Positions 632 to 48,662 of a stretch of 64,000 nt of DNA are shown in pieces. The position numbers were made by a program, and so were the translations under genes. The notes beneath the pieces were generated by a model. That model ran no database searches, was not told the origin of the DNA, and saw only the letters and a list, made by a program, of their open reading frames with translations. Each line of letters begins with the position of its first letter. The first letter of the stretch is position 1. This stretch comes from Octopus vulgaris (Eukaryota), in the NCBI GenBank assembly GCA_951406725.2, contig OX597835.1, positions 25,482,001 to 25,546,000 on the forward strand, written 5' to 3'.

Positions 632-3600
632 CTGGAAGTAAGGTTAAAAAATAGGAAAGATTATAGACAGACAGACTCTACTCAAAGATATATATATATA
701 TGCATACATATATAATGGATTGGTGGCATGTGTAAAAAGATTTGAGCGAGGTCATTGCCAGTACCACCTGACTGCCCCCCCCCCCCCGTGCCGAGGCACG
801 TAAAAGGGCACCATTTGAGCGTGATCGTTACCAATGTCGCCTTACTGGCACCTGTGCCGGTGGCATGTGTAAAAAGATTCAAGCTAGGTCATTGCCAGTA
901 CCACCTGACTGGCCCCCGTGCCGGTGGCATGTAAAAAGCACCCACTACACTCTCGGAGTGGTTGGCATTAGGAAGGGCATCCAGCTGTAGAAACTCTGCC
1001 AGATCAAGATTGGAGCCTTGTGCAGCCATCTGGTTCGCCAGCCCTCAGTCAAAATCGTCCAACCCATGCTAGCATGGACAGTGGACGTTAAACGAACAAC
1101 AATACATATATATATATATATATAAATGTCGCTGTTACTATCAATCATGTTACTCATGATTTTAAAACTATTTCTTTACCAACAACCAATGTATAGCTGC
1201 CCCAAGACAGTCCCTTTTCCATTGCATCTTCCCTCTGCAATCATTTCCTTTGATTTCTTTCGTCTTGTTAATCAATCCTTCCCATTCTTTTATTATCCCA
1301 TCTCAAATCACATCTGTTTTAAAAGATCCGAGACAACACAGAAAAGAACAGAGACGACTCTTAAGTGTTGTAGAAGCGAGGACAACTTCCCTAGTGTTGG
1401 TGTAGCAATAGAATTGTACCCAGTATACTTTGCAAAGTAGATGGCAGGCAAGAAAGGAAAGACGGTCCAGTCTTGCAGGAGAGACAAAAAAACCCCTCCA
1501 GTCTATTCATAGAGGAATATTATATTATTTGGAGAGATTTTAAGGTTGGTGACAGGAAGGATAGAAAATCTGACTCAAAAATCTCCGTTCACTCCGATTT
1601 GAACTCAGAATGTAAAGGTCTAGAGCAAATCTGTCAGGGCCTTTTGGTCAATGGTTGTACGTGGCCAAAGAGAGGTAACTCTCTAAGGGACATAACTCGG
1701 TAAGTGAACTGAAACATTCATTAAATACGAGTCGATAACGTTTGAGACTGAGAAGTGTAGTCAGAACATGACGAGGGCGGTCTCTTCGTATTCGAAGACC
1801 GCAAGGATGAGCGACATGCTGATAGTTCACGCTGTAGGGCTTTTTTTTTCGTCCTGCCTGTGCTTAATAATTTTCAAGTCATTTGTTAAGGTTATCTCTA
1901 CAGATATTCGATAGAAACTATAGCCAACGCTGATTTTTGTTACGACATTTCGTATACGAGATCGAAGATGAAAAAAGGGTAATGGCCGTATACTCCATAT
2001 TTCGGAAGGTTTTGCCCCGGATCTTTTCACTTTGACCGGCATATTTTTAAAATAATTTCTTTGTAACTAAACACTTTTAAACTTCGTATACTGGTAGTGT
2101 GTTATATAAAACATCTTTTTCTCTTGGCTTTCTTGAGAAAATTCTGTAGTTTGTAAGCTATTTGTTGTTTAATTTCTTGCATTTCGGCAATTTCAACCAA
2201 TCAATGACGTCTATTGAGGTGAATACAATATCTGCCATATTTTGTCAACAGCATTTTCTGGCGGTGTCATATGAGGATACAAAATAACACCAAATTAAGG
2301 GATTAAAAAAATAAAGGAATTGTCACACGAACCTTTTGACAAGTTCAATTTGATCTTTGACAGGCATACCTCCGATACACAACGCACAGCGCAGGGCTGG
2401 TAGACCGTCGAGTTCCATACAATTGCAGTAGTACTTGATTATTTCATGAGTTTGTCGTGCAAGTTCCCTCTGGAGTAATGTAAACGAAGACAAGTAAATA
2501 TCAAGTATACACACACACAAATATATATATATATATATATATATAATTAAAGTCAAATTAAGGGTGAAAAAATTGGATATTAATTAAATAACATCAATTT
2601 AAACACCAGTGGCCTAGCGTATAAAAGACTGAGATTCAGTAAATATTATTAATACACAACTATAAGAGAGAATCCACTATATGGACGCTCTTACGCTAGA
2701 TATAGATCCACAAAGGGACTCAACCACTAAGAATTGTTCTCAAGAAATAATTCAACACACCAAGAACATAAGCGATTTCTTGAGAACAATTCTTAGTGGT
2801 TGAGTCCCTTTGTGGATCTATATCTAGCGTAAGAGCGTCCACATAGTGGATTCTCTCTTATAGTTGTGTAAATATATATATATATATATATATATGCTTT
2901 ATTAAAAAAACAGTAAAGATATCACAAAAACTGTTACTCAGAGATTTTGTGATATCTTTGATGCTTTTTTTAATAAAGCATATTACTCTACCTCCAGTAT
3001 TCAAGTACTATTTTTTCCATCTTTTGCATTTATGTGCTTACTCTAGTATGTATATATATATATATGTATATAGGCACTGGAGTAGCTGTATGATAAGTAG
3101 CTTGCTCATCAGCCACATTGTTCCACGTTCAGTCCCACTGCATGTCACCTTGAGCAAGTGTCTTCTACTATAGCCTTGGGCTAACCAAAGCCTTGTGAGT
3201 GGATTTGGTAGATGGATACTGAATATTGTGTATATATATATATATGTATGTATGTATGTGTGTGTACATGTTTGTGTGACTGGTGTGTCTGTCCCCCCAC
3301 CATTGCTTGACAACTGATGTTGGTCTGTTTATGTACCCGTAACTTAGCGGTTCGGCAAAAGAGACCGATAGAATAAGTACTAGGCTTACAAAGAATAAGT
3401 CCTGGAGTTGATTTGTTTGACTCAAAGCAGTGCTCCAGCATGACCACAACCAAATGACCAAGACAAATAAAAGAATAAAAGAATATGTATATATAAATAG
3501 AGTAGATACATCTGGAGATAAATTTGGCCTCGAATCAGGGGAGACATATGTGGAAATAGATTGGGGCTCCAATCTGGCCTTTTGTGATACCCTTAAAGCC

Positions 3601-6600
3601 AGGAACTTTTCATCGACTCCTGCACATAAAAAGCATCCATTACATTCTTAGAGTGGTTGGCATTAGGAAGAGCATCCAGCCATAGAAACCAAGCCAAATC
3701 AGACTGGGACCTGATGCAGCTCTCTGGCTTATCAGTTCCAGTAAAACTGTCCAACCCATGCCAGCATGGAAAGCAGATGCGAAACAATGACGATATATTC
3801 TTTTATTCTTTTACTTGTTTCAGTAATTTGACTGCAGCCATGCTGGAGCACCATGCACATAATATATATATATATATATATATATATATATATATATACA
3901 TATATATATATATACACATACACACACAAGGGTGTTTTGAAAAAGTTTCCTGGCTTGGGTAGAAGAAAATACAGGAGGATCAGTTAATTATGATTTTATT
4001 CAACGTATTCCCCTCTCAGATTCACATACAGACATGTATCACATACATGTACACAGAAAGAGAGAGAGAGAGAGAAGTGGAAGAAGCAAAGAAGGAAATA
4101 TCTGATAACTTACTGAAGGGCAGATTATGAGGCCATACGGGCCCTCATTCTTGATGAAGGGTAGTCGTTTCTCTTGTTCCATGCAGAACATAATAATGGG
4201 CAGAGTGAATACCAGTGTTTTACCAGAGCCTGTGAAAGCAATCCCAATCATGTCTCGACCTGACAAACTGTAAATGAGAAAGAGCAATCAATATAGATCA
4301 ACAGATCAATCAATAAACGACGGGGTGCTGAAATGCTTCTGGCTTTAAGGGTATCGTGAAAGGTCTTGTTGAAGACCCAACCTTCTGACTTTTCTTACAG
4401 GGCTGAAGGAAAACTGAAGGACTGCTGTAATAAGTGTGTGAATCTGAGAGGGGAATATTTTATTTTTTAAAAATTTTTATCTAGTTTCAGCTCACATGCT
4501 GGGGCACCGCCATTATGTTGAATAAAATCATAATTAATTGATCCTTCTGTATTTCCTTTTACTAAAGCCAGGAACTTTTCATCACAACCTCATTTATATA
4601 ATAAGCAGTGTTTCAGAAAATATTTCAGCAGATCTCTATCCCCATTTAGCAGGTGCTAACCCCTAAGCACAAATGATTGAGACTGACTCCTGTTGGCAAG
4701 CCTCACCCTTAATTACACTGTGTAACACGATTTTTGCCCTTGGGTAGCAACTGATATTTCCTATTTGCTTACCCTTAGAAAATATGAAAAATATTTGTTT
4801 CTTTATTGCCCACATAGAATGGACAAACAAAGACAGACAAAAGGATTAAGTCGATTGCATTAACCCCAGTGCGTAACTGGTACTTAATTTAATCAACCCC
4901 GAAAGGATGAAAGACAAAGTTGACCTCAGCGGAATTTTGAACTCAGAACAGACGAAATACCGCTAAGCATTTTGCCCAGCGTGCTAACGATTCTGCCAGC
5001 TCGCCATCCTCCCCTTTAATATTCATATTACTCTGTCAAATGTAATGTGTATTCATTAAGGGTAAAGACCCCACTCGGTCATGTATGACCATGGTATTGC
5101 ATCTAGAAAGTTCTCCTCTGAGGCACAAGCCCAGGCAAGATTGTTTATGGAAGACCAATAGTCATCCATGCATACCAGCCTCTCCTCTTCATGCCACTGA
5201 TGTTATCCAAGAGAAAGGCAAAGGCTGATACAGATTGGCACCAGTGACGTTGCAACTCATTTTTACAGCTGAGTAGACTGGAGCAACATGAAATAAAGTG
5301 TCTTGCTCAAGAACACAACACACAGCCCAATCTGCGAATCGAACTCACTATCTCATGATTGTGAGCCTGATGCTCTAACCACTGAGCCACGTACCTTCAC
5401 TTATTCATTAATTTTGTTTTAAATTAACCATGCATTGACATTTCAATCGTATGATTGCAAATCTTTGAAATGACATTGTAGGGTAGGTGTGAGAGACAGG
5501 ATCTGATTGGTTTGAACATAAAAACATGTACGAATGTTTGGGGGTGGATACGGCCTGGTTTAAATGCTAAAGAACAACAAGTCCTTACCATATCAAATCA
5601 TCACCATCATCACTACTACCACTACAACACCCACTGTCACTGCCACCACTGCAACCACCACCACTGCCACTACCTCTACCACTGTCCCCCTCCCCCCTCA
5701 CACTAAAACTACCACCACCACCTACAACAACAACATTTAAGCAACTTACACAGCAGGTAGGCCCTGAATCTGTATAGGGGTTGGCTTGGTGATCCCCTTT
5801 TTCTTCAAGCCGTTGATGATAGCTTTTGGAAATTTCATCTCCTTGAAGGTTTTTATAGGGGCAGGTAGATCTTCACCTTCAACTAAAATGTGGCCCTTTT
5901 TCCTCACTTTAGCATGACGCTGCTCTGACATGTTCAAAATATGGCGCGGAGGGCGCCATCTGGTAAGAGAGAAACAAAATAAAAGGTAATTTAAAAAATT
6001 GAATGCTTCAGTTTTGAAACACACGCACAAGCATGCATAAACACATACTAAACACAATTAAACATATAAAGACATATGCACACACACACATACAAAGTGC
6101 TTTGCAGTTAGCTCCCTTGTTGAAAGTTACATGTTATCTCATTCTTTTATTTTTTTCTGCTCTAAGCACAAGGCTCAAAATTTTGGGGGATGAGGGGGTG
6201 CCAATCAATTAGACCCCAGCACGCAACTGGTACTTTAATTTATCGACTCCCCCCCCTCCCCCAAGGATAAAAAGCAAAGTCAACCTCAGCAGAATTTGAA
6301 CTCAGAACATAAAGACAGACAAAATACCTATTTCTTTACTACCCACAAGGGGCTAAACACAGAGAGGACAAACAAGGACAGACAAAGGGATTAAGTCGAT
6401 TACATCGACCCCAGTGGGTAACTGGTACTTATTTAATCGACCCCAGAAGGATGAAAGGCAAAGTCGACCTCGGCAGAATTTGAACTCATAACGTAATGGC
6501 AGACGGAATACCGCTAAGTATTTTATCCGGCGTGCTAACGTTCTGCCAGCTCTTTATACACTTATTCATTTACTCGTTTCCAGCATTTGACTGTGGCCAT

Positions 6601-48133: not shown

Positions 48134-48457
48134 TATATATATATATATATATATGCATGTCTATAGATATGTACACATGCATTTATGTATCTCTCTCTCT
48201 CTCTCTCTATATATATATATATATATAAAATAATATACATATATATATATAATAAAGGTGGCCCATTTATGATTTGAAACTGAAGGGCAGAAGCACAGAT
48301 GTCACTAAAGTGACTAACTTACAAGTGCTTCCTTGTGCCTATGAGTTGTTTAGATTCCTATTTCTAGCAATGCTGGTGCTCTTAGTCACTTTAGTGATGT
48401 CCATATATATATATATAACAAAAGAGGGGGTGTATTTCCATGCAGGGAAATATATCT

Positions 48458-48662
48458 GCAAATTTGTCGTTGAAAATGCACCTAAATTTGGAAAACTTGT
48501 GATTGTCTATTTGCATATACACCAAACTAGTTTTTTTAGAATTATTCTACCATTGATAAACAAAATATATTGTTGAAACTAGTTTGGCATCTATGTAAAT
48601 AAATTTATTTTAAACATTTACAAGTTTTTCAAATTTAGGCGCATTTTCAACAATAAATTTGC
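48458..48662. repeat. Degenerate fold-back between (TA)n tracts
   Basis: gcaaatttgtcgttgaaaatgcacctaaatttggaaaacttgt is inverted at 48620-48662; inner pair ccaaactagttt/aaactagtttgg. Confidence 0.65.

Follow-up and report, generated by a model that had tools for sequence, protein, structure and literature searches.

Two-sided Penelope-like insertions and putative hammerhead retrozymes in (TA)n tracts of the Octopus vulgaris genome

A 64,000-nucleotide stretch of the Octopus vulgaris genome (assembly GCA_951406725.2, contig OX597835.1, positions 25,482,001 to 25,546,000 of the forward strand; hereafter the window) contains hairpins placed mostly in (TA)n microsatellites, some of them with hammerhead ribozyme sequences, and raises the question of which elements these fold-backs come from and how they were inserted. 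An earlier note on the window had described at least seven fold-backs and read them as severely truncated insertions of at least four unrelated families of Penelope-like elements (PLEs). All seven were confirmed, and are labelled here by family: A (2545), B (2893), C (21272), D (31829), E (43403, with a further copy at 34876), F (44864) and G (48458). Two further families of short elements are labelled H (17200 and 45176) and I (39607). The inverted arms are 95–100% identical in A, C and D, 92% in F, about 80% in E and 75% in G. Since inverted pairs reach 123 nt without a mismatch, or 223 nt at 98% identity, the fold-backs are not due to chance. Each fold-back family has hundreds to thousands of copies in the 2.8-Gb genome. 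Taken as a whole, the observations are very probably explained by two-sided insertions of the PLE type, with A and D being retrozymes that have PLE ends.

Each fold-back is composed of a 5′-truncated copy with a tail and an inverted copy without the tail, mostly within (TA)n. This confirms the shared design proposed earlier, with corrections for E and G, the tails of which (43348–43402 and 48418–48457) lie outside the limits first assigned to them, and for the flanks of E, which are (TA)18 on the left and (CT)n on the right. In every fold-back, the tail forms the 3′ terminus of whichever strand bears the hammerhead in its family. The A stub (2546–2870, minus strand) has a tail of about 107 nt (2546–2652), an arm (2653–2748), a loop, and an inverted tail-less arm (2775–2870). 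It ends before reaching the cut site, by about 40 nt, and its source is a tandem hammerhead repeat of about 533 nt without an open reading frame (ORF). The B stub (2893–3048, plus strand) has its 66-nt tail on the right-hand side (2983–3048); its inverted arm (2893–2943) ends in a 3′ stump of the hammerhead, its sense arm begins at position 2944, 4 nt behind the cut site, and it is 78% identical to family F. The C stub (21273–21843, minus strand), the 3′ end of a putative Hydra-clade PLE, has a tail of 113–118 nt (21273–21390), an arm extending to about 21604 and an inverted arm at about 21630–21843. The D stub (31829–32181, minus strand) has a tail of about 105 nt (31829–31932) and two fully identical arms (31933–32056 and 32058–32181); it folds back 7–11 nt behind the predicted cut site, and its source is a young ORF-less tandem hammerhead repeat of 491 nt. 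The E stub (43348–43629, minus strand), from an old Hydra-clade PLE, has a 55-nt tail, an arm from 43403 and an inverted arm (43529–43629) with a decayed hammerhead. The F stub (44864–45090, minus strand), the 3′ end of a young Hydra-clade PLE, has a 67-nt tail (44864–44930), an arm extending to 45010 and an inverted arm (45015–45090). The G stub (48418–48662, minus strand), assigned to an old Neptune-like PLE, has a 40-nt tail, an arm from 48458 and an inverted arm at about 48576–48662.

A single (TA)n tract frequently houses neighbouring insertions of different families; examples in the window are the pairs A and B, and F and H. At 43286–43373 the E tail end is mirrored over (TA)18, and two tail ends face each other on one microsatellite. 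More hairpin-plus-tail families, related to A and bearing the tail motif of A, were encountered at other loci (L005:1150-1470, L040, L151:325 and L301).

The layout was tabulated genome-wide at loci chosen solely by the tail end and an adjoining TA: the first 90 of 628 in genome order for D, 30 of 69 for C, and 30 of the 4,522 exact tail ends in the genome for F. At 53 of the 90 D loci there is an inverted copy whose start is a second fixed site, 100–112 nt from the tail end; some adjacent inverted copy is found at 68 of the 90, and none at 22. A TA lies outside the inverted copy in 51 of the 53, a flank that was not imposed by the search. The inverted copy starts from a second fixed site at 18 of 30 loci in C (113 nt from the tail end in 17; two of the loci look like duplicates) and at 20 of 30 in F (67 nt in 19). 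Within each family the two outer ends are fixed and the inner joints vary widely; both the TA flanks and the variable fold-back points that the earlier note had suggested tabulating are present. Full-length coding copies carry the same two-sided ends as the stubs, and the arrangement characteristic of endonuclease-positive (EN+) PLEs, with partially tandem end repeats, a 5′-truncated inverted copy and a one-sided tail, was found; it agrees with the element structure described in PMC8557442. Fixed symmetric terminal repeats, target duplications and DDE transposases were not seen in the sampled loci.

Extension of the arms and tails to longer relatives, as the earlier note had proposed, reached PLE reverse transcriptase (RT) and/or GIY-YIG endonuclease genes for C, F (with B), E and G. 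Upstream of the C copies there is a 3′ untranslated region (UTR) of about 1.1 kb, followed contiguously by a GIY-YIG domain (Pfam PF01541, E = 4e-5, above the cut-off) and then the RT. Sister subfamilies of C have open frames of 976–1091 codons, and one of them (L150) has, between two (TA)n tracts and in this order, an inverted tail-less end repeat, a tailed end repeat, the ORF and a second tailed end repeat, which is the design of the window stubs with a gene in the middle. The best 150 matches to the F endonuclease are all 96–100% identical, many lie in 727-codon frames, and tandem copies are 3.4 kb apart; judged by these identities, family F is very young. Between the F copy of the window and the end repeat of an intact element (L351), identity is 94%. 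Fragments matching Hydra proteins were found at 7 of 20 E loci, and the E C-terminus fits the Hydra pattern. Relatives of G contain a decayed endonuclease at 3 of 20 loci, 55% identical to a Neptune-like one, in which a CX2-5CxxC linker and a CCHH motif are partly readable. The single ORF joining RT and GIY-YIG that marks EN+ PLEs is thus intact in C and F, present as fragments in E and as an endonuclease in G, and was not found for A, D and H; the protein searches returned the best 150 of 8,322 and of 18,581 candidates.

The Hydra clade is marked by RWK and DKT motifs, a CxCX5C linker, CxxC and CxH, and the lack of CCHH, according to the available text of Craig et al. 2021 (PMC8557442). The C protein has RWK, DKT, the CxCX5C linker, and CxxC and CxH around conserved E and N residues, and lacks CCHH. 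The F protein has RWK and DKT, and one linker cysteine is replaced by phenylalanine. By these motifs, C, F (with B) and E are assigned to the Hydra clade, and G is Neptune-like. The C proteins (L138:2896-5747 and L142) have long asparagine-rich inserts between the RT and the endonuclease, the length of which differs by subfamily. A third Hydra-clade family (L145–L148), with intact 842-codon frames and a hammerhead with a long stem II, is absent from the window. A decayed Hydra-type endonuclease fragment was detected at 36675–36950 of the window (minus strand; 31% identity to a Hydra protein, E = 5e-7); no hammerhead was noted in its vicinity.

The hammerhead cores listed in the earlier note were all recovered, at unequal quality: they are canonical only at 21418, 21728 and 34876. 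The type I hammerhead in the tailed arm of C (21418–21506, minus strand) has a 6-bp stem I, a stem II region of about 58 nt and a palindromic stem III; its mirror in the inverted arm (21728–21816, plus strand) has one G-U wobble in stem I. The isolated E hammerhead (34876–34937, minus strand) has a degenerate, poorly paired stem II. The cores at 17200 and at 45016 (the F hammerhead, 45016–45053, minus strand, within the inverted arm) are of the CCGA type, that at 45176 has lost G12, and that at 39607 is of the CUGU type. Only three of the seven fold-backs contain hammerhead sequence, which is intact in one. The window copies of A, B and D have no hammerhead, and each ends downstream of the cut site of its family; none was found for G in the five relatives searched. 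Most window copies are predicted to be unable to self-cleave, and the seeding of the genome with self-cleaving, dsRNA-forming modules, as put forward in the earlier note, is a conjecture.

An Rfam scan of the window gave no hammerhead among the 150 of 168 matches listed at E ≤ 1, which were microRNA models on microsatellites and hairpins, and a strict descriptor with a short stem II had no hits in the window (1 of 40 shuffles gave one). Both missed the window hammerheads because their stems II are long or their cores variant. Individual window hammerheads, folded as single sequences, are no more stable than shuffles (z from 0.45 to −1.7); the hammerhead region of D folds strongly (z = −5.2). 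In copy sets chosen by core pattern, stem I pairs 2 and 3 of C change jointly in 7 of 46 distinct copies, and stem I pair 2 of E is G-C, G-U or A-U in 14 of 14. The case for the window hammerheads, as read from the sequences, lies in pairing conserved across copies and not in single folds.

Families A and D differ from the coding families in that no ORF is linked to them. D forms arrays with up to eight matches at a spacing of 490–491 nt and 99–100% identity, in which each unit has one canonical type I hammerhead with a 68-nt stem II region. The arrays are bounded by an inverted tail-less copy at the start and by the tail and (TA)n at the end. The A unit is 533 nt long, has a hammerhead like that of D, and occurs in partial tandems. 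The D arrays and the A partial tandems thus show what is expected of retrozymes: non-coding units in tandem, with type I hammerheads recurring from one unit to the next. PLE proteins were matched at 0 of 30 A loci and at 1 of 120 D loci, the latter being a neighbouring unrelated insert. We classify A and D, by these features, as putative non-LTR (long terminal repeat) retrozymes and not as stubs of coding PLEs. Of the earlier proposal, several unrelated PLE-type families in the window stand, and the view of 2545 and 31829 as PLE stubs was not borne out; 17200 and 45176 belong to a family of short monomers. A 66-codon frame after the D tail was dismissed, as it has no counterpart in A.

The ends of D arms gather near the predicted cut site, located 236 nt from the tail end. 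When ends were counted in about 30 bins of 25 nt, 15 of the 64 sense arms at risk ended at 212–236 nt, compared to 0.044 per 25 nt elsewhere (p = 1e-7, for a bin drawn after the cluster was seen). Few ends fall in the long stem II, with 2 of 49 in the bin that follows and 0 of 47 in the one after; one unit further on, ends recur in 4 of 22. Inverted arms likewise ended in the cut-site bin in 15 of 47 cases and then in 1 of 32. Of the 36 loci with both arms extending past 195 nt, 12 have both arms stopped there, 2 have a single arm stopped (one of each arm), and in 22 both arms run on (Fisher, 1e-7). Whether a copy stops does not follow subfamily (17 changes on the tree vs 17.4 when shuffled), and the cut-site region is no richer in microhomology than other regions. 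Finer alignment gave similar ends; one copy (L229) has its start precisely on the next cut, one unit further along. Among the 17 copies that lack an inverted arm, 4 likewise end in the cut-site region. The same holds for the ends of A (7 of 19 vs 2 of 34, p = 0.007), in a sample biased by selection for copies reaching about 220 nt and with too few copies to judge arm coupling. The core of D has 11 positions invariant in 39 copies that span the ribozyme and were chosen without regard to the core. Shared variants are found in 0 of 14 cases in stem I vs 74 of 339 at other positions (p = 0.003). Position N7 is T in 15, C in 9, A in 8 and G in 7 copies, and the cut base is A in 29 and C in 10, never G. 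On balance, these data favour ribozyme cleavage as what sets the 5′ boundary of D. Joints near the D cut (L203, L205 and L210) often contain short duplicated A/T-rich filler, suggesting repeated re-priming at the template end.

The pile-up could alternatively be caused by stalling of the RT at a folded or protein-bound hammerhead, the templates being uncut. The strong fold of the D hammerhead region fits such a stall, and the ends of all four tested families gather near the hammerhead: at its 3′ edge in D and A, inside it in C, and just beyond it in F. Furthermore, a Poseidon element mainly used uncut RNA template in vitro, according to the available text of PMC11167929. However, independent stalls would not couple the arms (12/1/1/22) unless both copy one folded molecule, almost no ends fall inside the long stem II of D, L229 begins exactly at the cut, and the invariance of the core includes catalytic positions and not just paired ones. 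We consider stalling unlikely on this evidence.

It is still less probable that A and D are end repeats of coding PLEs that were not found, with arrays that arose, without a circle, from stubs amplified locally or from transcripts reading through tandem copies. The protein searches covered the best 150 of each candidate set, which leaves room for such PLEs, and local amplification from a PLE end was proposed by Li et al. 2026 (10.64898/2026.07.22.740005, available text). The D units differ by 0.35% within arrays and by 2.05% between arrays, which fits one template or local amplification equally and so does not separate a circle from local amplification. On the other hand, no D or A locus runs into an ORF, and in both families the tail of the previous unit lies upstream of the hammerhead. 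The arrays are bounded by fresh insertion ends, and D arms are longer than one unit in 32 of 90 sense cases and in 15 inverted ones, so that the template was circular or multimeric in those events. The least probable reading, that the hairpins are miniature inverted-repeat transposable elements (MITEs) or foldback DNA transposons with terminal inverted repeats, agrees with their short length, TA flanks, high copy number and long inverted arms, but can be dismissed because the tail is one-sided, inner joints vary by copy while outer ends are fixed, 22 of 90 D copies have no inverted arm, and longer copies in four families reach RT and GIY-YIG genes and not transposases, as the earlier note had maintained. 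The fold-backs are almost certainly of PLE origin.

Several points weigh against the explanation by PLE-type insertions and retrozymes cut by their own ribozymes. In addition to the drawing of the D bin after the fact and the biased A sample, a pile-up at the cut site was not seen in C (3 of 23) or F (3 of 23). The ends of F instead pile up, coupled, at 134–158 nt from the tail end (11 of 16), upstream of the F hammerhead and about 45 nt beyond the F cut (at 108), and those of C mostly fall within the C hammerhead. Coupling therefore indicates a template boundary or a shared stall, not cleavage as such. The F core is mostly CCGA, which may fit weak cleavage and uncut templates. RT and endonuclease searches (best 150 each) gave C, its sisters, the third Hydra family and F, and no autonomous element with A or D ends; the third Hydra family has a different hammerhead and tail. 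No run recorded as RNA was listed as containing D. Contigs from four runs, taken by guess as RNA, span most of the D unit and show no ends, strand or level; cleavage and circles are predictions. Clades were assigned by motif and by eye against the supplement proteins of Craig 2021 as available, G, itself lacking a Pfam hit, is placed by motifs and by being 55% identical to another endonuclease, and the full-length C and F ORFs also gave no Pfam hit.

In the proposed mechanism of PLE-type insertion, the PLE RT and endonuclease would likely copy RNA at a nicked (TA)n target, starting from both of its strands. As suggested by Frangieh et al. 2024 and Craig et al. 2021, two internal RT start sites would produce the tail, and two early-ending complementary DNAs (cDNAs) joined head-to-head would form the hairpin. 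We consider it likely, with good confidence, that A and D are mobilized in trans, their RNA being copied by PLE proteins. The tails of A, D, F and B have in common a short CCRCTGGT-like motif with a T-run and CACC behind it; folded singly, the tails showed no structure that they all have. The common motif and the youth of family F make it a candidate partner. The D template probably exists in two forms. From a ribozyme-cut linear monomer, both arms would stop just behind the cut, as in the window copy at 31829; from a circle or an uncut multimer, both arms would run through, giving arrays. RNA circles in place of tandem precursors are given slightly less than even chances. We tentatively propose that the 491-nt retrozyme records both template forms, with cut monomers yielding stubs and circles yielding arrays, that its core is under purifying selection, and that the coding Hydra elements likely to copy it use uncut RNA and tolerate core changes. 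If true, this would provide genomic evidence of hammerhead cleavage in vivo in the retrozyme cycle, and would indicate a Hydra-clade RT as mobilizer via the common tail motif.

The short elements H and I are non-coding and end in (TA)n. One H copy (17123–17312, plus strand) is a monomer of about 200 nt with a minimal hammerhead at 17200–17234, and the second (45105–45296, plus strand) contains the hammerhead at 45176. Family H has 5,725 exact motif copies genome-wide, mostly CCGA, and a fixed 5′ limit; no inverted arm, ORF or PLE protein was found at 20 loci. The I element (39516–39668, minus strand) has a minimal hammerhead-like motif, the CUGUNGA core of which is present in 22 of 24 readable local copies; no linked ORF was found at the local loci checked. 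Mobilization of H and I by PLEs is plausible.

Other repeats of the window were noted. Nested inverted repeats at 15241–15716 include a perfect 57-bp hairpin (15529–15656) within a 63-bp pair, without TA flanks. A 118-bp inverted pair about microsatellites at 45780–46216 is possibly mirrored target DNA. Inverted pairs 0.6–0.9 kb apart at 21892–22921, 49322–50219 and 55814–56754 resemble opposed copies of common interspersed repeats. A 26-bp minisatellite at 62220–63108 has about 34 copies and a 156-bp higher-order period, and tandem repeats of 63–66 and 100 bp at 12581, 37205 and 60299 are related to it.

Like the Hydra clade (PMC8557442), the Hydra-type families of the window have (TA)n targets and a type I hammerhead near the 3′ end, and by eye the F hammerhead closely resembles the tabulated one of Hydra-2_aMil. 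C, F and the third family differ, by eye, from Hydra-1_Obim in N-terminus and hammerhead (PMC8557442). The unit lengths of 3.4 kb in F and about 4.6 kb in C exceed the generally less than 3 kb of the clade, and the 3′ UTRs of 1.2–1.4 kb, asparagine-rich inserts, long stems II in C and E, and tails of 55–113 nt, as opposed to 30–40 nt, are unlike published Hydra elements (PMC8557442). In the Poseidon element PAc (Frangieh et al. 2024, PMC11167929), the tail is similarly delimited by two internal sites at which the RT starts, and an AT-rich target is cut on both strands. However, PAc belongs to another clade and has a tail of 30–40 nt; hammerhead cleavage is dispensable in vitro and RNA ends are not found at the cut, where the D and A ends gather. 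The palindromic stem III, short stem I, dispersed single copies and opposite-strand pairs 100–700 bp apart are shared with minimal PLE hammerheads (PMC4209133), from which H and I differ in having CCGA and CUGU cores as the family norm and monomers of about 200 nt without a linked ORF.

PLEs have been named as the likely source or mobilizer of animal non-LTR retrozymes (PMC7229834; 10.64898/2026.07.22.740005). A and D resemble these in their ORF-less tandem units, each with one type I hammerhead, their AT-richness and their co-occurrence with PLEs (PMC7229834; 10.64898/2026.07.22.740005). They differ in unit length (533 and 491 nt vs 170–400 nt in Cervera and de la Pena 2020, PMC7229834) and, from published retrozymes as far as described in the text available, in a stem II region of 45–68 nt and in insertions with a PLE tail and an inverted copy. 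The words "inverted", "truncated" and "target site" are absent from the main text of the 2020 retrozyme paper (PMC7229834), and "tail" and "cleavage site" are absent from the 2026 text (10.64898/2026.07.22.740005). A literature search that fell short of most subscription journals and Repbase turned up no publication about retrozymes of octopus or about copies truncated where the hammerhead cuts.

The insertion pattern is thus known, the families are new within known clades, and the two retrozymes have long-stem ribozymes and ends that provide a testable sign of cleavage in vivo. Because the architecture and the clade have already been published, most of the finding is repeat annotation: thousands of such stubs would be misfiled as MITEs, and Rfam misses their hammerheads. 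The role of the PLE hammerhead was called unclear by Craig 2021 (PMC8557442, available text), and the enzyme copying animal retrozymes was proposed, not shown, in the available text of Cervera 2020 (PMC7229834). A young retrozyme with hundreds of datable insertions, together with intact Hydra ORFs and a sharp prediction of RNA and cDNA ends, makes both the role of the hammerhead and the copying enzyme directly testable.

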